Below, piece after piece: positions 24,104 to 41,989 of a stretch of DNA of 64,000 bases (position 1 is the first letter of the stretch; each line of letters opens with the position of its first letter). Origin of the DNA: Candidatus Sulfomarinibacteraceae bacterium. GTDB lineage: Bacteria > Acidobacteriota > Thermoanaerobaculia > Thermoanaerobaculales > Sulfomarinibacteraceae. The translations under genes and the position numbers were made by a program. Under the pieces are notes generated by a model. It was not told the origin of the DNA. It saw nothing but the letters and a program-made list of their open reading frames with translations, and ran no database searches. Location: the NCBI GenBank assembly GCA_963796455.1, contig CAWCLO010000001.1:800001-864000 (forward strand), read 5' to 3'.

Positions 24104-25159
24104 TTATTCGGCCGGATATCGATCGAGGTCGAAGGCCTTCTGGCCACTTGATAAGGCATCGTGAAGATCGCAGGCAACTCGGTCGATCACATCACGAAGC
24201 TCGAGCTTTTTGAGCCATTTCGCAGGAATTACATCGACTCCGTGGAGCGTCCCCATGATTTGACCGGTGATGGATCCTGTCGAATCCGAGTCTCCCGAAT
24301 GGGTCACGGCGAGCCGCACGGCCGACTCGAAGTCCGATGAAATCATGGAGCAGAAAACGCCGATCGCCAGTGCTTCTTCTGCGACCCAACCACCACCGAG
24401 GCATTCCACTTCTTCGGCATTGCCGAGACCGAGGGCCTCGAAAGCAAGGGCATGGTCGAGGGCGTTCAGGGTCTCCTCGTGCTCGGGATAACCCGCCAGT
24501 TCGCTCATGGCCCGCTCGATCGCCGGTTCGAGATCGAGGCCGGTCATCAAGCCGGCGATGATCTGAGCCATGGTCCCCGATGCGAGCCAACCCGTGGTGT
24601 GGCCGTGGGTAAGAGCCGCCACTTCACACCCGCACAGAAAAGGATCGCCCGGCCATCCGAGACCGACGGGAGCAACCCGCATGACGCCGCCACAGCCCTT
24701 CGAGTCGTTGAGAGAATTTGCCAGGGTGCCGAGATCGCCGCCCTCGAGAGCTGTGATGCAGGTATTGCCGGGGGCTCTCTGATCATTGAGGGCCTTCGTT
24801 TCGGTCAACCAACTCGTGAGCGCACGGCGGTCGCCCCGACCGAGCGGATACCGCCCCTGGGTCGTCAACCATCGCCAGTGGGCGTCGAGCAGAATTTCGA
24901 TCGGGGGCACATCATCATGAACGGCGGCATAGTTGAGTGATCGAATCACTCCTTCGGCGACAAAGAGCGTCATCTGCGTATCGTCGGTAATGGATCCCGC
25001 CGGAAAAGCGCCATCCACCAAATCAGCCGGTCCGTCAGAACCGTAGATCTGTTCGATTTCTTCGAGTGGCATGAACTCCAAAGGCGCGCCGAGTGCGTCA
25101 CCAACAGCGCCTCCAAGGAGGCAGCCTCTGATCCGGTCACGAGGTGTCAGCCGGCTCAT
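24104..25159 (-). CDS. ADP-ribosylglycohydrolase family protein
   Basis: GGAVGDALG, TDDTQMT, RAPGNTC, SKGCGGVMR, THGH, HSGDSDSTG. Confidence 0.93.
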   Translation of the reverse strand: MSRLTPRDRIRGCLLGGAVGDALGAPLEFMPLEEIEQIYGSDGPADLVDGAFPAGSITDDTQMTLFVAEGVIRSLNYAAVHDDVPPIEILLDAHWRWLTTQGRYPLGRGDRRALTSWLTETKALNDQRAPGNTCITALEGGDLGTLANSLNDSKGCGGVMRVAPVGLGWPGDPFLCGCEVAALTHGHTTGWLASGTMAQIIAGLMTGLDLEPAIERAMSELAGYPEHEETLNALDHALAFEALGLGNAEEVECLGGGWVAEEALAIGVFCSMISSDFESAVRLAVTHSGDSDSTGSITGQIMGTLHGVDVIPAKWLKKLELRDVIDRVACDLHDALSSGQKAFDLDRYPAE

Positions 25160-25211: not shown

Positions 25212-25466
25212 TCACAACCGATTACCGTCCGCGATGGATTCATCCTTTGACGGCAGCGGTTCTGCCAGGTTCTCCGACCCTTCGAGTAGCGACAATTGCT
25301 GAAGCTTCTTCTGCATTGCGATCCAGTCAGTCTCGGACACCAGCACCGCATTGCCGCGAAGCCCGGTGATCAGAACCGGTCCGAGACCTGAGAGAACCTG
25401 GTCCATGACGAACTGAAACTCGTTCTGGGCATCATTGGTCGGGACTTTTTGAATCGACACTGTCAA
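25212..25466 (-). CDS. Phd/YefM-like antitoxin (no adjacent cognate toxin)
   Basis: PVLITGLRGNAVLVSETDWIAMQ resembles the YefM PVxIT..RGNAVLxSxxDW core. Confidence 0.7.
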   Translation of the reverse strand: MTVSIQKVPTNDAQNEFQFVMDQVLSGLGPVLITGLRGNAVLVSETDWIAMQKKLQQLSLLEGSENLAEPLPSKDESIADGNRL

Positions 25467-25487
25467 ACCCCCGCTATCTTCGGTCCC

Positions 25488-25868
25488 TCACAGATCGGCA
25501 TCGACCCGATGTTCTAAATTCAACTGCACCCTCATCGCCTGACGGATTGCGGATCTCAGATCCGGATCGTCGATAGTCGCCAGGGGTGCCTCGAGCCGTT
25601 TTTTCGAAATGGTCCTTGTCTGGTGGGCCATCGCAACCGCGTCGTTGTTGAGTCCAATAACAAGCGACGGAAGCAAAACCTCGTTCGGGTAGATCCTGCG
25701 GCCGGGCGTGTGCGGGGTCAGAGGAAGCACCGTGACGATCGGCAGCGCCAAATTCGCGGTTTCGCGCGATACCACGAGCACCGGTCTCCTGGCCGCTCGA
25801 TCCGAGCCGATCAGTGGCTCGAGATCGACCTCGAAGATCGACCATTGAAGCGATGATTCGTCCATCAA
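25488..25868 (-). CDS. mazF: PemK/MazF family toxin
   Basis: VDLEPLIGS...RRPVLVVS, VTVLPLT, HQTRTISKKRL. Confidence 0.9.
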   Translation of the reverse strand: MMDESSLQWSIFEVDLEPLIGSDRAARRPVLVVSRETANLALPIVTVLPLTPHTPGRRIYPNEVLLPSLVIGLNNDAVAMAHQTRTISKKRLEAPLATIDDPDLRSAIRQAMRVQLNLEHRVDADL

Positions 25869-26143
25869 CCGGTTGGTTCCAATCCTTCATTGCCATTGCC
25901 AAAATCACGCAATACCTGTTCGACATCGGACAGAAACTCGGGGTCCGATGCCGCCGAATGAAAGGCCTCTGCAAGCTGGCTTTCACGCGCCCTGAGGACA
26001 CCATCTAAGAGAGCCCGCTCCACAAACGCGCTGTATGACGGCGCCGCACCATCGCGGACCACCTCTCGAACGTCTTCGACCAGATCGGTCGGCAACGAGT
26101 AAGTGACCTTCTGCAGTCTCTTGGTTGGCGCGTTTGGTCCCAC
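25865..26143 (-). CDS. Ribbon-helix-helix-like antitoxin
   Basis: KVTYSLP...SYSAFVERAL; 4-nt overlap with the toxin gene. Confidence 0.75.
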   Translation of the reverse strand: MGPNAPTKRLQKVTYSLPTDLVEDVREVVRDGAAPSYSAFVERALLDGVLRARESQLAEAFHSAASDPEFLSDVEQVLRDFGNGNEGLEPTG

Positions 26144-30114: not shown

Positions 30115-30363
30115 TCAATCTGAATCGTCGGATCCCGGCGACTCCCGCGGCGGCACCGGATCGTATCCTCCCGGGTGGAAGGGGTGGCATTTTCCGATGC
30201 GCTTGATGGCCATCCAGACGCCGAGTAGACCGTGGGTCTCGATCGCCTCGGCCGCATAGACCGAACAGGTCGGTTCGAAACGGCACGCCGGCGGCATGAA
30301 CGGCGAAATAAACCGTTTGTAGAAACGGGCCGGAGAAGCGACAACGCGCCACAGCAGACTCAT
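30115..30363 (-). CDS. yidD: Membrane protein insertion efficiency factor
   Basis: [40 protein letters not shown]. Confidence 0.93.
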
Positions 30364-30403: not shown

Positions 30404-30793
30404 ATGAGCGAAAATCGAAACATCATCTCAACCAACGAGGCCCCGGGAGCGGTCGGTCCTTACTCCCAGGCCGTCGCATCCGGCAACTTCGTTTTCACCG
30501 CCGGTCAGATCCCCATCAACCCCGCCAGCGGCCAGATCGAGGCCGAGACCATCGAAGACCAGACCCGGCAGGTGCTGCGCAACGTGGACGGCGTCCTCCG
30601 TGCCGCCGGCAGTGGGCTCAACCGGATCGTCAAGATGACGGTCTTCATGACCGACCTCGGTGATTTTCAGAGGATGAACGGCGTCTATGCGGAGTTTTTT
30701 CCATTCGAACCGCCGGCTCGCTCGGCCGTCCAGGTGGTCGCGTTGCCGCTCGGCGTACAGATCGAGATGGAAGCGGTCGCACTCGCTCCCTGA
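30404..30793 (+). CDS. ridA: RidA/YjgF family enamine/imine deaminase
   Basis: [35 protein letters not shown]. Confidence 0.93.
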
Positions 30794-30798
30794 GCGAA

Positions 30799-30892
30799 CG
30801 AGAGTTCGGAGTTCGGAGTTCAGCGTACCGCTCCGCCGCCACTTGACGGACGGAGAGGTTTTGATCTCCGAACTCCGAACTCCGAACTCTCG
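30799..30892. repeat. Inverted 7-mer palindrome (GAGTTCG)3...(CGAACTC)3
   Basis: Perfect 23-bp arms at 30799-30821 and 30870-30892. A TATGAT -10-like box follows at 30899. Confidence 0.9.
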
Positions 30893-30934
30893 CCCTGTTA
30901 TGATCAGCCGGTTTCGCGCCCTGGAGGGAATCGC

Positions 30935-32917
30935 GTGCAGCAGAGCATCAACTACGAAGAGGTCGGGCTGCGAGTCGGACTCGAAGTCCACCAACAATTG
31001 TTGACCGAAAAAAAGATGTTCTGCCACTGTCCTGCCGGGCTTTACACCCGGGATCACGACGGTTCGGTCCTGCGCCACATGCGACCCACTTTGTCCGAAC
31101 TCGGCGAATACGATGGCACGGCCTTGATGGAGTTCAAGACTCGTAAAAACATCGTGTACCTCCTCCACACCAGCAATGTCTGCACCTATGAAATGGACGA
31201 TACGCCGCCCTTTCTGGTCAATGAACAGGCCATCGACATCGCCATCGAGCAGTGTTTGATGCTCGGCTGCGACATCGTCGACGAGCTGCATATCGCCCGC
31301 AAGCAGTATCTGGATGGGTCCATTCCCACCGGTTTTCAACGCACCGCCATCGTCGGTGTCGAGGGCCGCCTGCCCTTTCGCGGACGCGAGCTGAGCATCA
31401 CCCAGGTCAGTGTCGAGGAAGACTCGTGCCGCGAAGTCTCCGACCGCGGCCACCTCATCGTCTGGCGTACCGATCGGCTCGGAATGCCTTTGATCGAGAC
31501 CGTCACAGGCCCCGAACTCCAGACTCCCGAAGAAGTCGAAGAGGCCATCCTGCTGGTCGGCCGGGTCTGCCGTTCCACCGGTCACGTTCGAGTCGGGATG
31601 GGTGCGAGCCGCCAAGATGTCAACGTGTCCGTCAGAGGCGGTCAGAGGGTCGAGATCAAGGGTGTGCCAAAGGCAGGATGGGCCCCGGGTCTAGTCCACG
31701 GCGAGGCGATCCGTCAGGTCAATCTCCTGGCCCTACGGGATGAACTGCACAATCGGGGATTCAAGATCGCCGATCACATCGTCATCGATCACGCCGAGGT
31801 CACGAACATGGTTTCCGACGCAGCGATCGAACTTTTCAAAGCAACGAACTGGGAGCGGTTCCTCGCCGCGGACGACCGCCGTGCCACCTTCGAACGTGGT
31901 GCGGGGCCGTTCTGCGTCCGCGCCGTGCGTCTGCGAGGCCTCGACGGAACTCTCGGGTGGCCGACGCAGCCGGACCGTGTTTTCGCCGACGAGCTCCGGG
32001 GCCGTGTGAGAGTCATCGCCGGTCTCGATCAGCATCCCGTGATTCTCGACTCGGAAGCATGGCCCGGCGAGAAAGATGCCGGGAGGCTTCTTGCCTCTCT
32101 CCGCTCCCAGATGAATTGCACACCCGATGACGGTCTTGTTGTGGTCTGGGGCCCCGAAAGGGACACCCTGACCGCCGCCGATGAAATCCGTCTCCGCTAT
32201 GTCGATGCCGTTGCAGGCGTACCGCTCGAGACCCGGCAGCCCTTTGTGGACGGCAGCACCGATTTCGAGCGAATCCTCCCCGGTCCGGATCGCATGTACC
32301 CCGATACCGACAGCCCGCCGTTGCGGCTCACTCGCGAGAGAGTCGGAAGACTTTCCGAAACACTTCCGGAAGCACCGTGGTCACGGGAGGCGCGCTACGC
32401 GGCGGCCGGTGTTCCGCGTCATCTCATCCACTACCTGATTCGCCGGGGCGGAGCTCGAATCGTCGACCTGGTCGTCAACGAATCCGACGCCGATCTCCGA
32501 CGTGCCTGCTTTTTCTTTGGCGAGCGGATCAAAGGCCTGCGCCGCAGGGGGCTCCCGGTTGACGAGGTACCCGACCGGGCGTGGTGCGAGTTCTTCACAC
32601 TGGTGACCCGGCAACCGGTGATCTGGGAGGCGTGGCGCGATCTCGTCGAATGGGTCCTGATCCACCCTGACCAAAGCCTCATCGAAGACGCCGCGACCGC
32701 CGGTTTCGGGGCCCCCGACGGGGACTGGCGTGAAACGGTCATCGGTCTGACCGAAGGACGGAGCCCGGACCACGACGACGGCAGCCTCGATCAGCGTCAC
32801 CGATTTCTGATGGGTCTGGTCATGGACGAGCTTCGCGGTCGTGTGAAGGCAACCGAGATCGCACCGATTCTCCGTGAGTTCGAGCCCGAGAACGAAATGA
32901 GTGGGAGGAGACCATGA
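30935..32917 (+). CDS. gatE: Glu-tRNA(Gln) amidotransferase subunit E (archaeal-type)
   Basis: GLEVHQQL, RPTLSELGE.D, DDTPP, DGS..TGFQRT, EEDSCR, DRLGMPLIE, RQDVNVS...G.RVEIKGV, a long internal insertion, ETR...DGST...R.LPG..RMYPDTD. Confidence 0.9.
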   Translation: MQQSINYEEVGLRVGLEVHQQLLTEKKMFCHCPAGLYTRDHDGSVLRHMRPTLSELGEYDGTALMEFKTRKNIVYLLHTSNVCTYEMDDTPPFLVNEQAIDIAIEQCLMLGCDIVDELHIARKQYLDGSIPTGFQRTAIVGVEGRLPFRGRELSITQVSVEEDSCREVSDRGHLIVWRTDRLGMPLIETVTGPELQTPEEVEEAILLVGRVCRSTGHVRVGMGASRQDVNVSVRGGQRVEIKGVPKAGWAPGLVHGEAIRQVNLLALRDELHNRGFKIADHIVIDHAEVTNMVSDAAIELFKATNWERFLAADDRRATFERGAGPFCVRAVRLRGLDGTLGWPTQPDRVFADELRGRVRVIAGLDQHPVILDSEAWPGEKDAGRLLASLRSQMNCTPDDGLVVVWGPERDTLTAADEIRLRYVDAVAGVPLETRQPFVDGSTDFERILPGPDRMYPDTDSPPLRLTRERVGRLSETLPEAPWSREARYAAAGVPRHLIHYLIRRGGARIVDLVVNESDADLRRACFFFGERIKGLRRRGLPVDEVPDRAWCEFFTLVTRQPVIWEAWRDLVEWVLIHPDQSLIEDAATAGFGAPDGDWRETVIGLTEGRSPDHDDGSLDQRHRFLMGLVMDELRGRVKATEIAPILREFEPENEMSGRRP

Positions 32918-34311
32918 GCGAAACAGAACGAGATCCACTCAAAGGGTATCGGGGACGGGCCAGAGAACTGCTCGGCCGCCTCGGGGTCGAGGTCTGGTCT
33001 GACGTCCGCCTCGAGAATTCCGCCGGCAGCGTTTTCGAGGGCGTTATCCTCCCCAGGTCGGGGAATTTCGACGATCTCCACATCGTGCTCAAACTCAAGA
33101 CCGGCTACAACGTCGGCGTCCACGTCGACCGGGTCAGGTCGATCCAATCGCTCGGATACAAGGAAGCAATCTACAAGATCCCCGAACAGGAATTCCCCAG
33201 CCGCCCCGATCTTCCAAAGGTCACACTCCTCGGCACCGGCGGGACGATCGCGTCGAGGCTGGACTACCGAACCGGTGCGGTGATTCCGGCCTTCACCCCG
33301 GGCGAGCTTTACGGCGCCGTTCCCGAGCTTGCCGACATCTGCAACCTGACCACAAAAAAGATCTTTGGCGTCTTTTCCGAGAACATGGGGTGGTCGGAAT
33401 ATGTTGCCCTCGCCGAAAACATCGGCAGCGAGGTCGAAGCCGGAGCGGATGGCATCGTCATAGGTCACGGCACCGACACAATGGGTCACACGGCTGCAGT
33501 CCTGAGCTTCATGGTTCAACAGTCCCCGGTGCCGATCGTTCTGGTCGGAAGCCAACGATCCTCGGATCGACCTTCTTCGGATGCCGCACTCAATCTCATC
33601 CACGCAGTACGGTTTGCCGCCCTGGGCGACATTGCCGAAGTCCAGATCTGCATGTTCGGTCCGACCTCGGATCGCTACGGACTACTCCATCGCGGCACCC
33701 GATGCCGCAAAATGCATTCCTCCTATCGCAGCACCTTCCGAACCATCGGCGACATCCCCTTGTGCCGGGTCAGCAGCGACGATTTCACGATGCTGACTGA
33801 TGATTATCTTCGCCGGGACCCGACTCGGAAGATCCAAATCGACACCGCCTACGACGACCGGGTGACGATTCTCTACTACTACCCCGGCATGAAACCCGAT
33901 CTTGTCGATGCACTGGTCGAGAAGGGGTACCGGGGAATCGTCATCGCCGGCACCGGCCTCGGGCACGTCAACGGGCCGCTTTACCCCGCTCTCGAACGAG
34001 CCGTTGCGGCAGGAGTCCACATTGTCATGACGGTCCAGACCCTGTGGGGTTTCGCGCAGATGTACGTCTATGAGACCGGACGCGACCTGCTCGATATCGG
34101 CGTTGTTCCGCTCGAGAACATGCTGCCGGAAACAGCTCTCATGAAGCTCGGCTGGGTATTGGGACACACCGACGACCACGACCGGGTCCTCGAGATGATG
34201 CGCGAAGCCATCAGCCACGAGATCACCGAGCGGGAGCCCCACAACGGATACCTGATTCTCCAGGGCGGCCTTCCAGAGACCGAGGAGTTCACCTCGTCTC
34301 ACTGGAAATGA
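32914..34311 (+). CDS. gatD: Glu-tRNA(Gln) amidotransferase subunit D (archaeal-type)
   Basis: N-terminal VLKLKTGYNVG domain, TGGTIASRLDYRTGAV, HGTDTM, GSQRSSDRPSSDA, RKMH, GTGLGH, VYETGRDL, MLPETA. ATGA overlap with gatE. Confidence 0.93.
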   Translation: MSETERDPLKGYRGRARELLGRLGVEVWSDVRLENSAGSVFEGVILPRSGNFDDLHIVLKLKTGYNVGVHVDRVRSIQSLGYKEAIYKIPEQEFPSRPDLPKVTLLGTGGTIASRLDYRTGAVIPAFTPGELYGAVPELADICNLTTKKIFGVFSENMGWSEYVALAENIGSEVEAGADGIVIGHGTDTMGHTAAVLSFMVQQSPVPIVLVGSQRSSDRPSSDAALNLIHAVRFAALGDIAEVQICMFGPTSDRYGLLHRGTRCRKMHSSYRSTFRTIGDIPLCRVSSDDFTMLTDDYLRRDPTRKIQIDTAYDDRVTILYYYPGMKPDLVDALVEKGYRGIVIAGTGLGHVNGPLYPALERAVAAGVHIVMTVQTLWGFAQMYVYETGRDLLDIGVVPLENMLPETALMKLGWVLGHTDDHDRVLEMMREAISHEITEREPHNGYLILQGGLPETEEFTSSHWK

Positions 34312-34321
34312 TCTTGACCAA

Positions 34322-35803
34322 TCAGTGCCGGAGGCGGACGTTCTGCGGGCTGGCTATAGAACAATTCGACCGCTCGAGGACATACTCTTCCCGAGCCAGA
34401 GCGAGATTCGAGGGCTCATAGAGCGGAAGATACACCCGTTCCTCATCAAGCTCCCGCAGAGCCTGCTGGAGTAGATCGAGCCGCAGCGCGTAGTGTGATT
34501 CGTGGGCGGCAGCTTCAATCAGCCCGTCCAATTTCGAATTCGAAAGCACCGCACCGTTAAACGCGCCCAATCCGCGTTCGGAATCGCGGCTGTGGACGAT
34601 GGTGTCGAGAAATGGTGAGGCATCGGCGACGCGAAAGGTCCACGAGAAGATCGAGAGTTGATTCGCAGATTCTCCGAGGCGGCGGTAAAAATCATCATAG
34701 GCAAGGGTTCGAGTCTCGATCGTGAATCCAAGATCTTCCAGTACATCGGCGAGAACCAGTGCCACATCCGAATATGCGGCATGGAACACGATCTCGAGCA
34801 CCGTGCCCGCCGGCAGTTGAGCCTCTTGAAGCAGCGCCCGCGCCTCTTCGATGTCGGAGCCCCGGTGCCTTAGTTCGGGACTGAATCCGAAAATTTCCGG
34901 TGGGATCACCGACCAGGCGGCCCGCGCCGTACCTTCGGGAAAAACTTCGGCCACAAGCGACGAACGGTCGATTGCGAGATCGATGGCGCGGCGAACTCTT
35001 TGATTGGCAAGTGGTCCGCTGGAGACATTCAGCGCGAGGAAGGTGGTCGTGACAGCCGGACTGGCAACGAGTTGCCACCCTTCCTTGAGCGGGTGTTCTC
35101 TGACGTGACCCACCGTCACCGAGGTGGCGACGTCGATACCATCTTCTTGCAGAAGGCGGACCAACTCTTCTGAGCTCGTTGCGAACTGCAGACTGACCTC
35201 CTCGAAATCCGGTCGTGTGTTCCAATAGCGCGCCCAACTGCGGAGGGTGATCGGTCCGCTGAGCGACCCAATCTCCCACCGATAGGGCCCGGTACCAACT
35301 GGTCGTCCGGGATCAAAATCCCGGGGAACGATCGCCACCGCTTCGAGCTGAGTCAACAACAGTGGCGAAGGACGAATGGTGGCGATTTCAATCATTCCAT
35401 CGTCGAACTCATCCACCCGCACATGCTCGATGTCGGCCAATTGGTGGCCAACGAACTGACTCTGGCAAGCCCGTTTGATGGACGCGACCACGTCCTCCGC
35501 CATCAGCTCCCGACCATCGTGAAAGAAAACCCCGCTCCGAATGTGAAGCCTCCAGGTGAGGTGGTCGGGATTGTCCCAACGGTCGGCCAGCCACGGCCGG
35601 ATCGGACGCCCGGGATCAAAGCGCACCAGCCCTTCATAAACGGACGAAAGAACTGCTCGGGAGACGCTGTCGGAGTGGGCATGGGGATCCATCGTCACGA
35701 TCTCATAAGGAAACGCCATTCGAAGCCGTGTCGGGCTTTCGGTCTCTTGTGGACAACCGTAGGCGGCCACAAGAGCCATGGTAAGAAGGATCCGCATTCT
35801 CAT
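34322..35803 (-). CDS. ABC transporter substrate-binding protein, family 5 (lipoprotein)
   Basis: Lipobox AYGC, MDPH, YEGLV, FHDG..L.AEDV..S, GTGPY, RVRRAI..AIDR. Confidence 0.88.
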   Translation of the reverse strand: MRMRILLTMALVAAYGCPQETESPTRLRMAFPYEIVTMDPHAHSDSVSRAVLSSVYEGLVRFDPGRPIRPWLADRWDNPDHLTWRLHIRSGVFFHDGRELMAEDVVASIKRACQSQFVGHQLADIEHVRVDEFDDGMIEIATIRPSPLLLTQLEAVAIVPRDFDPGRPVGTGPYRWEIGSLSGPITLRSWARYWNTRPDFEEVSLQFATSSEELVRLLQEDGIDVATSVTVGHVREHPLKEGWQLVASPAVTTTFLALNVSSGPLANQRVRRAIDLAIDRSSLVAEVFPEGTARAAWSVIPPEIFGFSPELRHRGSDIEEARALLQEAQLPAGTVLEIVFHAAYSDVALVLADVLEDLGFTIETRTLAYDDFYRRLGESANQLSIFSWTFRVADASPFLDTIVHSRDSERGLGAFNGAVLSNSKLDGLIEAAAHESHYALRLDLLQQALRELDEERVYLPLYEPSNLALAREEYVLERSNCSIASPQNVRLRH

Positions 35804-36778: not shown

Positions 36779-39700
36779 TTATCCGAAGACCTGGTTTGCT
36801 TTTCCGATCCTCAACATCTCCTTCGTTCTCTCCGCAACGTCAACGACCTCCGGATCACTGTCCTCGAGCGCATCATTCAGGACATCTCGGGCAGGCCCCT
36901 TGTTTTCGAAGAGTATCAGCGCGCGAACCGCATTGCGCCGTACTCTCGGATCGATGTTACGGCTGAATTGCTCAATAAGTTCGAAGGCCTCGCCCTCGGC
37001 GATTTTGCCGCTGCTGATCAATTCGATCAGCACAGAGCTGGCTGCCTCCACATTCCTCCCCTCGCCGCTCTCGAGAGCGGCGATCAGAAGATCCTTGCCG
37101 GTCTTTTCCACACCATAAAAAAGCGCAAGGGCAGTGATGTGACGCACCGTTTCCGAATTGTCGTTGAGCGCATCCGCAAAACGAGGATCGGTGTCCGCGC
37201 CGATTCGAACCAGGATCCCCAGAAGATCCTCGAGGCGTTTGCTGTGGAGCCCCTGCTTCGCCCGCTGCAGAATCCGATCATTGAGAGCGACGGTGCCGAA
37301 GGTCCCAACACAATTCACCGCGTTCGCGTAGCGCGAACTGAAGCCCTCACTGGCCGCCTTGCCCGGCTCGTACTCGGGCGGCGCAATGCGCTCGGTGTCC
37401 ACCGCTAGATCGACGAAGTCCGGGAAATGACCCTCGCCGCATTCGGCCAGACCGACCGACGGTCTGTTCTGGTAGGCGTGGGCGGTGCCCCGGGTGAGCA
37501 TCATCCCCCTGCCCTGGACCTTGATCGCCAGTTCTTTCTGGTGTCTGTTGAATTCGGGACCACCACCCGGTGAGCGGAGACTCATCATCGCGAGGAGGAT
37601 CACGATGACGGCTGCAGCCGCCCCAGCCGCTTTCAACCCGATATTTCGGGTCGCGCTCTCGATGATCTGTTTGGCCGGCGCCACCCTCTCTTCGCGCTGC
37701 CTTTTCTCCGCCAACTGTTGGGTTCGTTCGCGCTCCTCGGTGCGGCTCTCGGCTCGGAATCGAACCAGCTTCTCGAGTTCCCGTTCGACCCGATCCGGAG
37801 CGAGCCAGCCATAACCTCGCCTCTCGAGATCGGTCAACAGTGCCTTGAGCTGATCTTCGGTCCATTTCGGAACCGGGGCGTTCGTGTTTTCACCTTCGCG
37901 TTGGCGAATAAAGACTTTCAGAAAGGGCAGAACTCGGTCGTCCCACGATCCGCGTTCGGGCAACTCCGGCTCCCAATCCAGGAACCACAGCCGCAGGCTC
38001 GAGTCGCTGCCGGCGGACAAGGCACCACCGCCGTCTCGGGCGATCGAAATATCCGCAATCGGACCTGCATGGCCTTCAACCACCCACACCGCGGAACCGG
38101 TCCTGGCATCCCACAGACGGATCGTGGAGTCCTTTCCCGCGGACAAGAGGAAGCGCGCGTCGGGACTGAAGGCAATCGCAAGCACGGGGCCATCATGCCC
38201 CGTCAGAACCCTCCAACACCGACCACCCTCGAGATCCCACAGGCGAACTGTTCCATCCTCTCCAGAGGATGCCGTGAGGCGACAATCCGGACTGACGGCC
38301 ACCGCATGGACCGAACCTTCGTGGCCCTCCATTCGGCGGAGCTCGGCACGCCTGCGAAGACTCCATACGGTCACCAGGCTGTTCCATCCACCACGAACGA
38401 GGTATTGCCCGTCCGCACTCGCCGCGATCGCAGACACTCCCTCCTGGCTGCTGCCCAAAAGCTCGGGCAGCAAAGAATCATCGAGTGGCCAAAGGCGCAC
38501 GGTTCCATCGTCGCCGGCCGAGATCACCGCACGTCCGTCCGGCGTGAAAACGACCGCCTGTACCGTTCCTTCGTGGCCATCAAAGCTATGGGTCTTCTTG
38601 CCGTCGGACAACTGGCCTACTCGAACCGTGTGATCGCGGCCCGCCGAGGCAAAATGCTGTCCGTCCGCACTGACTGCGACAGAAGTGACGCCCTGTTTGT
38701 GGGCATCCACGACGATCCTCTCGGCCCCGGACACGGCGTCAAAGATCCGGATGGTGCCATCACCACAACCGGCGACGCAGCCGGCGCCATCGACCGTCAA
38801 CGCACAGGCGGTCATGGGAACTTGACCGCTGCCAAAACGACGAAGCTCGACCACCGATCGCGGCGCCTCTTTCGGAAAGAAAGCCAGCACCCTGTTCCAC
38901 AGCTTGAGAGCCTCCTCGTGAAGCTCGTAGCCTCGCACTTCACGCGCCCTACGCAACGGCACGATCGCACTTTCGGCACGGCCGTTTTCGATCAGACCGC
39001 GGGCTTCTTCGAGGAAAGCCTGAAATTCCGTTTCGCGACCTGCGAGCTCTCCCGACGCGGCGGTGTCCGCAAGCACCAGCGGCAATCTGGAGGCACGTGG
39101 CTCTGGCATAGCGATCCGGCAAACTGATGATCCAAAGGCGGCCAGCAGCTCGTTCCCATCAGCGTCGGCAACTAGATCCTGAATCGGATTTGCAAGCCGG
39201 ATGACTCTCTGGGCCTCACCGCTTTCAAAGTCCCAGATTCGAATCGTGCCATCTTCGCCACCGGATGCGATCGATGAACCGATCATCGTCACGGCGGTCA
39301 CTGCTCCGCGCAGACCCCGCAGATAGCGGATATTCTCACCGGTCTTCAGGTCCCAGATCCCGACAGCTCCATCCTGGCCGCCGGAGACCGCCCAGTCACC
39401 AGTGGGATGCAATGCCAGGGCGCGTACCGGTCCTCGATGACCCTCGAGAACATGGACGCACCGACCCTGATCGAGGTTCCACACTCTGATTGAGCCGTCA
39501 GCACTGGCGGTACAGATCGATGCTTCGTTCGGATGAAAGGCAATGGCGCTGACGAATGCCTCGTGTCCTTCCAGCGTGCGTTCACACTCACCGCTCTCCA
39601 GATTCCACAGCCGGAGGCAACGGTCGGAGCCTCCACTCGCGATGACTTTGCCATCGGGTGAGGCTTCGACGCAGGTCGCGACTCCAGGGTGGGTCCTGAG

Positions 39701-41989
39701 GTTTCTCAGACGTTGCCCGTTGCCGAGATCAAAAAGCGTCAACGGGCCGTCTTCGATACAGGCGATCAAGGTGTCGTCCACCACGGTCATCGACCGACCC
39801 GGACGGGCCGACCCGCCGAGCTTGATTCGGTGGACCGCTTCATCGCTGGAGCGGTCCCAGACCACGGCATTCGAGTCGGCGCTTCGAACGACCGTCCAGC
39901 CTCCAGCCAGAGTCCGGATGGCCTGCACCGGAGCGGAGTGATTCATGACCTGTTCGATCCGGTGGCCCGGGAGATGGGCGGCCGCCGCGTCGTTCAAATC
40001 ATCGGGAAGATCCCGATCGATCGACTGCGCCGCCTCGAAGGCCTTTGATGCCACCTCTTCATCGCCGAGCCGCGAACAGCACTCGGCAAAACCAAGCAGA
40101 GCGGGCAGGTCCGACGGGCTTTCAACAACGACTGTCCGGATCAGTTCGCGGGCCTGGCTCAACTCTTTGCGCGAGCTGGTCGTTCGAGCAGAAGCGAGGA
40201 GGGCGAAACCCTTTTCCCTCCGTCCTGCAAGGGATTTGACCTCGGCCCGGCTCAGAGAGTCGACTGCGGCAAGCGCTCCCGACGGATCATCCAACAGCAA
40301 CCGGAGCCGAGCACGAAGGAGACCGGCCCGGGTCGCTCCGCCGGATGCTCGTTCTGCCTCGGACAGGCGCCGCTCGAGCTCGGCATCGGTGAGACCTTCC
40401 CGGCGCCATTCGAGGAGCCCGCTGTTAAAGGTGGCCTCGATGTGCCTGGGGTCGATTTCGAGCGCCTCGTGGAAACTCGCTTCAGCTCTTTCGGCGAGAC
40501 CCAGGGTGACGTATGAAGCGCCCCGGTTGTTGAGCGAATCGGCAAGGAGCTGCGTCCGCTTCGGCTCCGGTCGGGGATAGGGACGATCGGTCGCCTGTTC
40601 GTAGATCTCCACCAACCATCCCCGCAACAGGGCGAAGGAATGGGGTCTCCGACCGACATCTTTTGCGATACACGAACGAAGGAGCGCGGCCAACCGGGGC
40701 TCCAGGGAATCGTTGAAGGTTCGCGGATCAGGTGGATCTTCTCGCAGGTGCATCCTCATCCAGCCGCTGAGATGGGCCTCTCGGGTCCGCGAGACCGAAC
40801 TCGAACCCATCACGAAGGGCCGCCGACCGCAGAAGATCTCGTACAGCATGCAGCCATACGCATAGATATCAGTGGCGGTCGTGCCGCGCAGAGCCTGACG
40901 CCACAACTCGGGTGCCATATACGGAGGCGTGCCCACGAGACCACCCTCGATGGTCACGGTCTGCCAAGAACCGCTGACCACGCTGTCGCCGCTTCGACCT
41001 CCAAGAACGGGAGGAGACTTCATCTGCGACCGGAGACCACCCTCGCCCTCGTTTTCGATCCCCTCTGCGCGCACCAGACCAAAGTCGGTGACCCGCGCGA
41101 TTCCTTCCCTCGTGACCAGAACATTTGCCGGTTTGATGTCTCGGTGGACCAGACCCTGGTGTTCATTTCCGTCAGAATCGGTCCACGGAAAACTGTGGGT
41201 GTAGTCGAGACCGCTCGCAATCTGGATCGCAATATCAAGACGTTTCGGAAGATCGATTTCGGTTTCCCGTTTCAACCACTCGTTGAGGTCACCACCGTCG
41301 ACGTATTCGATAAACAACCTCGGCATACCGCCGATGTTCTGCAGGTAATAGGCGCAACATATGTTCGGATGGACACCGAGAGCGATCCACGATTCCGCCT
41401 CGCGTTGGAATCGTGCGCTGCCGTCGGCGGAAGCGAGGACCGAAGGAAGTGGGGTCTTGACCGCAACCATCCGTCTGAGCTCGCGGTCAAAGGCAATGGC
41501 CACCACCGCCATCCCACCACGTGCCAGGGCGCGAACCTCGTATCGCCCGTCGACAACGGTCCCTTCCTGCCAGCCCCGCCGCGCTTCGGGAATTCCCATC
41601 GTCCCGTAGCTGGCAGCCGATCCTTCAGCGGACTCGACGCGTTGGGTCACGCCCGACACGGCGGCTCGCGCGATTTCCGTGGCTACCGGTGAGGGGGACA
41701 ATTCGTGGGAGACCGTGTGGGCTTTGTCGAGTTCATCCAGGGTCCGCTGACGCCAGCCCTGAGCGGTCGTCGAAGAAGGATCCAATTTGAGGCAGGTGTC
41801 GAAGGCGCTGACCGCTTCGTCATATCGACCGAGATGAAAGAGGCAATAGCCCTGATTGAGCCATGAACGGCTGTGTTCCGGGAAGCGGTCACACCAGATC
41901 TCCAGCTTGGCCAGTGCTTCTTGCCAGCGCTCCGCGGAGAGCGCGGCGACGATCCCGCGCTTCAGCTCGTCGTTCCCGTGTTCATTCAC
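36779..41989 (-). CDS. Large Hanks-type Ser/Thr kinase with TPR, two WD40 blocks, a TM helix and C-terminal HEAT-like repeats
   Basis: VAVK, HRDIKPAN, DFG, GTPPYMAPE; many GH...D.T.R.W repeats; AAAAVIVILLAMM TM; DPRVRRNAVRAL. Confidence 0.88.
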   Translation of the reverse strand: MNEHGNDELKRGIVAALSAERWQEALAKLEIWCDRFPEHSRSWLNQGYCLFHLGRYDEAVSAFDTCLKLDPSSTTAQGWRQRTLDELDKAHTVSHELSPSPVATEIARAAVSGVTQRVESAEGSAASYGTMGIPEARRGWQEGTVVDGRYEVRALARGGMAVVAIAFDRELRRMVAVKTPLPSVLASADGSARFQREAESWIALGVHPNICCAYYLQNIGGMPRLFIEYVDGGDLNEWLKRETEIDLPKRLDIAIQIASGLDYTHSFPWTDSDGNEHQGLVHRDIKPANVLVTREGIARVTDFGLVRAEGIENEGEGGLRSQMKSPPVLGGRSGDSVVSGSWQTVTIEGGLVGTPPYMAPELWRQALRGTTATDIYAYGCMLYEIFCGRRPFVMGSSSVSRTREAHLSGWMRMHLREDPPDPRTFNDSLEPRLAALLRSCIAKDVGRRPHSFALLRGWLVEIYEQATDRPYPRPEPKRTQLLADSLNNRGASYVTLGLAERAEASFHEALEIDPRHIEATFNSGLLEWRREGLTDAELERRLSEAERASGGATRAGLLRARLRLLLDDPSGALAAVDSLSRAEVKSLAGRREKGFALLASARTTSSRKELSQARELIRTVVVESPSDLPALLGFAECCSRLGDEEVASKAFEAAQSIDRDLPDDLNDAAAAHLPGHRIEQVMNHSAPVQAIRTLAGGWTVVRSADSNAVVWDRSSDEAVHRIKLGGSARPGRSMTVVDDTLIACIEDGPLTLFDLGNGQRLRNLRTHPGVATCVEASPDGKVIASGGSDRCLRLWNLESGECERTLEGHEAFVSAIAFHPNEASICTASADGSIRVWNLDQGRCVHVLEGHRGPVRALALHPTGDWAVSGGQDGAVGIWDLKTGENIRYLRGLRGAVTAVTMIGSSIASGGEDGTIRIWDFESGEAQRVIRLANPIQDLVADADGNELLAAFGSSVCRIAMPEPRASRLPLVLADTAASGELAGRETEFQAFLEEARGLIENGRAESAIVPLRRAREVRGYELHEEALKLWNRVLAFFPKEAPRSVVELRRFGSGQVPMTACALTVDGAGCVAGCGDGTIRIFDAVSGAERIVVDAHKQGVTSVAVSADGQHFASAGRDHTVRVGQLSDGKKTHSFDGHEGTVQAVVFTPDGRAVISAGDDGTVRLWPLDDSLLPELLGSSQEGVSAIAASADGQYLVRGGWNSLVTVWSLRRRAELRRMEGHEGSVHAVAVSPDCRLTASSGEDGTVRLWDLEGGRCWRVLTGHDGPVLAIAFSPDARFLLSAGKDSTIRLWDARTGSAVWVVEGHAGPIADISIARDGGGALSAGSDSSLRLWFLDWEPELPERGSWDDRVLPFLKVFIRQREGENTNAPVPKWTEDQLKALLTDLERRGYGWLAPDRVERELEKLVRFRAESRTEERERTQQLAEKRQREERVAPAKQIIESATRNIGLKAAGAAAAVIVILLAMMSLRSPGGGPEFNRHQKELAIKVQGRGMMLTRGTAHAYQNRPSVGLAECGEGHFPDFVDLAVDTERIAPPEYEPGKAASEGFSSRYANAVNCVGTFGTVALNDRILQRAKQGLHSKRLEDLLGILVRIGADTDPRFADALNDNSETVRHITALALFYGVEKTGKDLLIAALESGEGRNVEAASSVLIELISSGKIAEGEAFELIEQFSRNIDPRVRRNAVRALILFENKGPARDVLNDALEDSDPEVVDVAERTKEMLRIGKANQVFG

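Follow-up and report, generated by a model that had tools for sequence, protein, structure and literature searches.

What does an enzyme regarded as archaeal do in a bacterium? The question is raised by two adjoining genes, gatE and gatD, in the window analyzed here, a 64,000-nucleotide stretch of DNA from a Candidatus Sulfomarinibacteraceae bacterium (assembly GCA_963796455.1, contig CAWCLO010000001.1, positions 800,001 to 864,000 of the forward strand). Together they encode GatDE, a tRNA-dependent amidotransferase that PMC2811023, PMC2330236, PMC9499178, and PMC2943598, the latest from 2022, present as archaeal only or archaea specific. In PMC9499178 and PMC2943598, its standing as an archaeal signature enzyme that serves Gln-tRNA(Gln) only underlies models of genetic-code evolution. 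The original prediction, made from the sequence alone, saw in the pair an old inter-domain transfer that provides either a third bacterial route to Gln-tRNA(Gln) or a repurposed amidotransferase. The second option is favored here, because a swap with the asparagine synthetase gene asnA in relatives of the host points to asparagine. The reading preferred, with a probability of about 0.48, is that GatDE was re-specialized to make asparagine in place of AsnA by amidating Asp-tRNA(Asn). The broader statement that bacterial-type GatDE supplies asparagine, by whatever route, is probably correct.

The gatE-gatD operon in the host

The operon consists of two full-length open reading frames (ORFs) joined by an ATGA overlap, as originally described (Table 1). 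Comparison with hidden Markov models (HMMs) upheld their assignment to GatE and GatD rather than to GatB and asparaginase I. The gatE product scored 389 bits against TIGR00134 (cut-off, 319.6) and 436 bits against PRK04028, slightly below the cut-off of 456, but merely 110 to 121 bits against the two best GatB models. The gatD product scored 495 bits against TIGR02153 (cut-off, 324) and 490 bits against PRK04183 (cut-off, 310), and its 356 bits against the type I asparaginase model lie below both GatD scores. The nearest Protein Data Bank (PDB) entries, by sequence and by fold, are the archaeal GatDE structures 1ZQ1 and 2D6F.

The AlphaFold model of GatE (mean predicted local distance difference test score [pLDDT], 91; predicted template modeling score, 0.87) shows cradle, insertion, helical, and tail domains. 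The large internal insertion named in the original prediction is folded in the model and aligns with both archaeal structures over residues 280 to 425. The helical and tail domains are of full length, with pLDDT values mostly between 74 and 96 over residues 480 to 650, and the Pfam GAD model finds no match on the GatE protein. Residues H19, E161, and E188 correspond to the Mg ligands H15, E157, and E184 of M. thermautotrophicus GatE (numbering of PMC2330236). Both glutamates are kept in 101 of 101 bacterial GatE sequences, and the histidine is kept in 97, the remaining four having gaps at this position. GatD combines the predicted N-terminal domain, matched by the GatD_N model PF18195, with a type I asparaginase-like amidase that has a Thr nucleophile and a Thr-Lys-Asp triad; T111, T187, D188, and K266 show no variation across all 87 bacterial sequences. 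Judged by these alignments, the operon is a true member of the GatDE family with all of its catalytic residues intact.

That the pair stems from a chimeric assembly with archaeal DNA, or is a recent and unused acquisition, has a negligible likelihood. The textbook view that GatDE is archaeal is the sole point in its favor. Against it, the window lies within a 1.33-Mb contig of a 5.02-Mb genome (10 contigs, 90.5% complete, 0.87% contaminated; G000 below), relatives share the synteny, and contigs from a separate study (P3) span the junction of gatE with the upstream intergenic region as well as that of gatD with the downstream DNA and show no differences there. Among host ORFs of similar length, gatE and gatD rank at the 47th and 72nd percentiles for GC content at third codon positions and at the 45th and 49th percentiles for codon distance, so that the host-like composition noted at first holds. 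Across about 100 loci the reading frames are intact and the active sites invariant.

Alternation of gatE-gatD and asnA in one slot

The evidence for asparagine comes from a comparison with AsnA (TIGR00669, aspartate-ammonia ligase) in ten genomes from three genera of the host order. In the first five, AsnA was not found in the GatE carriers G000, G077, and G011 and was found in the non-carriers G073 and G129. The second five, picked after this pattern had appeared, gave the same result: AsnA was not found in the carriers G125 and G081 and was found in the non-carriers G117, G085, and G029. Mutual exclusion thus holds in 10 of 10 genomes (Fisher P = 0.008, a value overstated by kinship); three of the five AsnA hits exceed the cut-off of 292.8 bits and two fall slightly under it (289 and 291). 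In G073 and G117, ridA and the gene for a family 5 solute-binding protein (SBP) flank asnA, and in G129 its flanks are ridA and an FAA-hydrolase gene. The same slots hold gatE-gatD in G000, G125, and G011, in the opposite orientation. The AsnA of G073 has no match anywhere in G000, where the slot flanks are intact, so that an assembly gap does not account for the lack of asnA at the slot. The G073 protein shares 73% identity with the AsnA that stands beside gatD-gatE in another genome, G204. The slot may once have held both asnA and gatE-gatD and then lost either; on either history, one of the two was enough and one was kept. Since asnA occupies this slot in relatives that lack the pair, the pair likely makes asparagine here. 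The exchange at this locus is a new result of the present analysis.

The inventory of synthetases, tRNAs, and amidotransferases proposed with the original prediction was carried out on 82 GatE carriers. These comprise 32 found among 151 sampled genomes of the host class (unpublished genomes G004, G103, and G134 are counted only in class tallies, as non-carriers) and 50 picked for breadth out of 79 gatE loci from a scan that covered part of the species genomes. GlnRS is present in 73 carriers (31 of 32 in the class; 42 of 50 across phyla, 40 of them above the cut-off). The host is among them, with its GlnRS gene directly behind the GluRS gene. AsnRS occurs in 79 carriers, 74 above the cut-off (31 of 32 in the class; 48 of 50 across phyla, 43 above it), and GatB in 33 (8 of 32, and 25 of 50 with 23 above the cut-off). 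An archaeal GluRS (TIGR00463) scored above the cut-off in none of 80 carriers. Both tRNA-Gln of the host have a U1-A72 pair, as does its tRNA-Asn, and no U72 was seen in tRNA-Gln among 150 of 190 rows from 80 carriers. In G000 the GatB family search matched PF02934 only in gatE and gave no PF02637 match, and the four amidase genes found in this genome are located away from gatE-gatD. With GatE as query, no GatB was found in 36 other genomes of the host order, 16 of which carry GatE. Glutamine synthetase (GS) was found in all five genomes checked, G000 included.

Candidate roles were rejected on this inventory. Replacement of GS is contradicted by its presence in those five genomes, and replacement of a missing AsnRS by the 148 of 151 class genomes that have AsnRS. 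AsnRS was not found in the G000 assembly. Two congeners share a syntenic 17-kb block around asnS, of which no orthologues occur in G000; given a completeness of 90.5%, a gap in the assembly is the most likely cause. A tRNA-Gln or GluRS of archaeal type transferred together with GatDE was sought, and neither was found.

The third bacterial pathway that the original prediction had offered, with GatDE as the main route to Gln-tRNA(Gln), is very improbable given the GlnRS of the host and of most carriers and the lack of an archaeal GluRS above the cut-off in 80 carriers. One genome, G184, speaks for it, with GatE and GluRS and neither GlnRS nor GatB found. However, among 41 genomes around G184, 14 of the 18 with GatE also have GatB and three of the remaining four have a second GluRS/GlnRS-family gene, which leaves only the incomplete G184; moreover, 20 of the 36 order relatives manage without GatE. 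Genomes G137 and G186 lack even GluRS, which indicates assembly gaps there. A lineage around G184 with GatDE as its sole Gln route was rejected as well, as it comes down to one incomplete genome among 41.

With Gln-tRNA already covered by GlnRS in 31 of 32 class carriers, the asparagine reading gains support. It is also favored by the asnA, aspS, and tRNA-Asn genes that adjoin the pair in a few loci and by GatB-like residues of the GatE clade (see below). Its tRNA-dependent form is favored because no GatB was found in the host order and because GatCAB offers a precedent in Bdellovibrio, where it makes Asn on tRNA in the presence of AsnRS and GlnRS and the absence of AsnA and AsnB (PMC4206432). 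The proposed sequence of events would begin with the single bacterial AspRS mischarging tRNA(Asn), a U1-A72 tRNA. GatE would bind the Asp-tRNA(Asn) and use ATP to phosphorylate the side-chain carboxyl, while GatD would free ammonia from glutamine and send it through a tunnel. The resulting Asn-tRNA(Asn) would enter translation, and AsnRS would be retained for asparagine imported from outside. The enzyme may accept Glu-tRNA(Gln) as well, like bacterial GatCAB.

Several observations weigh against this proposal. The main caveat is that 48 of 50 genomes have AsnB-family genes scoring above the cut-off, carriers and non-carriers of GatE alike and with no pattern, and that G000 has three, so that another source of asparagine may exist. 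The AsnB family includes amidotransferases for other substrates. AsnA was tested in only the 10 genomes of one order, and asnA and gatE co-occur in three other loci. The 33 carriers with GatB would already have the asparagine job covered, and the additional copies of tRNA-Gln and the GS genes next to gatE (see below) suggest the glutamine side. According to PMC2943598, the GatE insertion docks GluRS and is predicted to block binding to a non-discriminating AspRS, and this insertion is still present. The host AspRS has Gly at the 83-equivalent and, at the 31-equivalent, Leu rather than the His linked to non-discrimination. The latter site holds Leu and Leu in two carriers and Phe and Leu in two non-carriers; no informative AspRS motif difference between carriers and non-carriers emerged from these two pairs of genomes. 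A point in favor of the proposal is the loss of a GxxAxG motif in the tail, which PMC2811023 ties to rejection of tRNA(Asn). The motif is found in 0 of 94 bacterial sequences but in only 16 of 55 archaeal ones, so that its loss is weak evidence.

The bacterial-type clade and its gene neighbors

GatDE is not restricted to archaea. All titles among the 79 gatE loci are bacterial and include Acidobacteriota, Myxococcota, Planctomycetota, Bacteroidota, Ignavibacteria, Calditrichota, Zixibacteria, Cloacimonetes, Eisenbacteria, and others, the nearest titled loci being from Thermoanaerobaculia and Ca. Sulfomarinibacteraceae. The 119 best protein relatives of the host GatE share 67 to 78% identity with it, and those with names are bacterial proteins from metagenome-assembled genomes (MAGs) labelled GatE. 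As suspected at the outset, the bacterial occurrence is thus already visible in databases. A full-text search that covered few subscription papers found no literature on bacterial GatDE or on a link with AsnA. In most loci that cover both genes, gatD lies directly 3' of gatE.

These sequences belong to a large and distinct bacterial-type clade, whose members come from numerous bacterial phyla and from archaea of the Thermoplasmatota. It is separated from archaeal GatDE by 16 diagnostic GatE columns and a C-terminal extension of GatD. The motifs KQYLDGSIPTG and KMHSSYRSTF, which had been singled out as deviating from the archaeal consensus, are present in the host GatE and are signatures of this clade. 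Ranking metagenome loci by likeness to haloarchaeal GatE gave 75 canonical sequences and five with the bacterial-type motif among the best 80 of 562 matches, a biased sample. Four of these five form a clade, with relatives named Thermoplasmatales, Thermoplasmata, or Euryarchaeota archaea. In loci L182, L187, L192, and L213 (Thermoplasmatales/Thermoplasmata relatives), bacterial-type gatD and gatE are arranged head to head in those that cover both. Canonical GatE is present too in related Thermoplasmatales.

The trees with archaeal homologues place the clade apart from GatB and leave its root unreliable. In a full-length GatE tree (83 rows thinned by identity from 181; LG+G4), the Shimodaira-Hasegawa-like approximate likelihood ratio test (SH-aLRT) gave a support of 99 to the bacterial-type clade and 94 to canonical archaeal GatE. 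In a core-only tree under a mixture model (61 rows, with 22 near-relatives and long GatB rows removed), each received 94. In both, the bacterial-type clade is sister to, and not nested in, the sampled canonical archaeal GatE. The GatB outgroup branch measures about 5 changes per column and is so long that the root may be drawn to the longest inner branch. Approximately unbiased (AU) tests, with values from LG+G4 fast searches, did not reject nesting with the group that holds Thermoplasmatales canonical GatE (P = 0.09) or with a group of short archaeal GatE (P = 0.13). Two other placements were marginally rejected (P = 0.047 and 0.037), and archaeal bacterial-type copies as sisters of their own canonical copies were firmly rejected. 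With an unreliable root and a biased archaeal sample, these sequences neither establish nor exclude the proposed origin by transfer from archaea, while the amelioration suggested with it agrees with the host-like composition.

Some individual sequences deserve mention. Archaeal-type GatE of 475 to 486 amino acids (L199, L204, L205, L214, and L216) apparently lacks the insertion domain, and gatD adjoins it in several cases. Locus L257, of a genome (G229) among relatives of a Zixibacteria record, has gatE 66% and gatD 83% identical to those of the window; the GatE of its relatives is 41 to 49% identical to that of the window, far below G229, and a transfer between phyla is likely from these identities. 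In Natrinema (CP031304.1; L136:5989-7860), gatE is frameshifted after about residue 323 with no listed coding sequence; the gene is essential, and the frameshift is probably a sequencing error.

Four positions of the clade are closer to GatB than to archaeal GatE: Y125 and P131, both in the kinase core, and, in the type of residue, A121 and I130. At positions 84 and 457, it is archaeal GatE that is closer to GatB. These residues may line the tunnel or an interface rather than determine specificity. The tail has a mean identity of 0.205, compared with 0.64 for the core, in bacteria and of 0.37 compared with 0.57 in archaea. Position 245 holds Gln in 37 of 37 archaeal GatE and Asn in 12 of 12 GatB sequences and is mostly Pro in the bacterial-type clade; the amide presumably has a role in tRNA contact.

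The diverged tail and the lost amide bear on an alternative that is possible but improbable, namely, that GatDE is a tRNA-free, glutamine-dependent asparagine synthetase in which GatE makes beta-aspartyl phosphate, ammonia from GatD amidates it, and AsnRS loads the free Asn. The retained insertion, with its predicted AspRS clash, would fit such an enzyme, as would the exchange with AsnA, whose product is free Asn. AsnRS, which according to PMC4206432 accompanies AsnA, is found in 79 of 82 carriers; however, it is near universal in the class regardless (148 of 151). Coexistence with GatB and presence in Thermoplasmatota archaea would also be accounted for. On the other hand, the GatB and GatE enzymes described in the cited literature act on aminoacyl-tRNA, the helical and tail domains are complete and confidently folded in the predicted model, and 5 of 104 loci have a tRNA-Gln or tRNA-Asn gene no more than 150 nt 5' of gatE. 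An extension of this alternative, likewise improbable, is a third kind of asparagine synthetase, free of tRNA, that amidates free aspartate via an acyl-phosphate, swaps with AsnA across bacteria, and has reached Thermoplasmatota in the form of a clade of its own; the deep split between it and archaeal GatE could then be as old as the two domains.

The tRNA genes just mentioned lie 69 to 132 nt 5' of gatE and represent about three independent events, where rough arithmetic predicts well under one by chance. Those for tRNA-Asn are found in two loci of one genus, and no other tRNA type occurs within 150 nt in the 104 loci (relaxed ARAGORN output on the gatE loci was noise for the most part). The tRNA-Gln(CUG) adjoining gatE in G152 and G162 is a second full copy. 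In G163, a tRNA-Gln-derived gene 69 nt 5' of gatE (L087:4188-4263; also L237) carries the amber anticodon CUA and changes at positions 32 and 37, next to normal tRNA-Gln(CUG) and (UUG) elsewhere in the genome; a decaying copy, a suppressor, and a non-ribosomal substrate are alternative explanations.

Among 118 loci, asnA lies directly upstream of the GatDE pair in three and aspS directly upstream of gatE in one, a same-strand GS-family gene is adjacent in four, an ammonium transporter is nearby in two, and a type I asparaginase is a direct neighbor in one. In G235 and G212, gltX or glnS lies within about 5 kb of gatE. The 129 other flanking ORFs scanned are nearly all unrelated to amide-nitrogen metabolism, and apart from nitrogen and tRNA genes no neighbor is conserved beyond the genus level. 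In the aspS case (L107:2589-4430, in G181), the gene has His in its RDHG motif and no gatD adjoins gatE; the genome also has GatB and AsnRS. Divergent GS-family genes well below the GlnA cut-off adjoin gatE or gatD at L074:4361-5908, L082:2539-3957, and L097:3572-5059.

The neighbors on the glutamine side would suit an enzyme that has adapted to U1-A72 tRNA and acts as an auxiliary Glu-tRNA(Gln) amidotransferase. It would rescue the product of a leaky GluRS or, with asparagine as the amide donor, spare glutamine, and the pattern seen with AsnA would follow indirectly from a common gene cluster. For this explanation speak the extra tRNA-Gln copies (including the anticodon-altered third copy in G163), the same-strand GS-family genes, and the gltX or glnS nearby. 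The insertion that docks GluRS is kept, and Glu-tRNA(Gln) amidation is the sole activity known for the family (PMC2330236). It is nonetheless rather unlikely as the whole explanation, since it leaves unexplained why each of the ten genomes has exactly one of asnA and gatE-gatD, the host has both GlnRS and GS, and an archaeal GluRS partner is missing from 80 carriers. An auxiliary role of this kind may coexist with the asparagine role.

Table 1. Features of the operon and its slot (window coordinates)
Feature	Position	Strand	Description
yidD	30115..30360	-	Bacterial neighbor, kept beside ridA
ridA (Rid family)	30404..30793	+	Left border of the gatE-gatD/asnA slot
Long inverted-repeat hairpin	30799..30892		Between ridA and gatE; z-score -8.1
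Putative extended -10-like element	30896..30904	+	TG-n-TATGAT; by eye
Shine-Dalgarno-like element	30923..30927	+	GGAGG, 7 nt 5' of the GTG start; by eye
gatE	30935..32917	+	Kinase/amidotransferase subunit, 660 amino acids, GTG start; model scores, alignment, predicted fold
gatD	32914..34311	+	465 amino acids, GatD_N plus asparaginase-like amidase; model scores, alignment
Family 5 SBP	34322..35803	-	Right slot border in the host's genus

Of the expression signals claimed for the operon, the Shine-Dalgarno and -10-like elements are visible by eye, and a consensus promoter scan returned 0 sites. Partial copies of the hairpin occur at four further genome positions (blastn). The bacterial character of the neighborhood is borne out by yidD, ridA, dnaE, purH, and rnhA; dacB and the LolA-like gene, also named at first, were not confirmed in the window at a strict threshold. 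Elsewhere in the window, positions 36779 to 41989 encode a 1,736-amino-acid protein with TPR-like, Ser/Thr kinase, and WD40-like regions that is kept in congeners. Small toxin-antitoxin-like genes (Phd-like and PemK/MazF-like, by eye) at 25212 to 26143 adjoin an ADP-ribosylglycohydrolase-like gene (24104 to 25159). In the wider genome, an EpmA-like (PF00152) gene extends over two frames (C3:90037-91027), owing to a frameshift or an assembly error, and a tRNA-Sec gene is present. About eight related repeats of 90 to 95 nt on several contigs, labelled tRNA-Asp by ARAGORN, resemble a dispersed structured repeat.

Comparison with known systems

If the asparagine reading is true, a widespread clade that substitutes for an asparagine synthetase would overturn current views of the distribution and specificity of GatDE. 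It would provide a natural system for studying how amidotransferases choose between Glu and Asp and between A1-U72 and U1-A72, and it would bear on whether the insertion domain truly bars the asparagine route. Annotations and auxotrophy predictions would be corrected in many uncultured sediment bacteria. The exchange with asnA makes a testable claim out of an unexplained extra enzyme.

The closest known system is archaeal GatDE (M. thermautotrophicus, 2D6F; P. abyssi, 1ZQ1), the best match by HMM, sequence, and fold. The host enzyme shares with it both subunits, the GatE insertion, the GatD N-terminal domain, the Mg ligands, and the Thr-Lys-Asp amidase residues. It differs in belonging to a separate clade, mostly with the order gatE-gatD, that has lost the Gln at position 245 and has a diverged tail. 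Its bacterial hosts have U1-A72 tRNA-Gln, in contrast to the archaeal A1-U72, together with GlnRS and AsnRS, and exchange the pair with asnA. Unlike the canonical enzyme, it is neither confined to archaea nor the sole route to Gln-tRNA(Gln), and an archaeal-type non-discriminating GluRS partner is absent from the 80 carriers searched.

With GatCAB the host enzyme has in common Y125 and P131 in the kinase core and, in the proposal made here, the tRNA-based supply of Asn without an asparagine synthetase, for which the Asp-tRNA(Asn) role of GatCAB in Bdellovibrio, Thermus, and Deinococcus is the parallel (PMC4206432). However, its amidase subunit is an asparaginase-type GatD instead of GatA, there is no GatC, and GatE carries the insertion. 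The 3-10 turn region by which GatB reads U1-A72 is missing from GatE (PMC2811023).

AsnA is an unrelated protein that shares with GatDE the slot in relatives of the host and stands beside gatE or gatD in the three other loci. Its reaction takes free ammonia and proceeds through aspartyl-adenylate; that of GatDE would draw on an amide donor and proceed through an acyl-phosphate.

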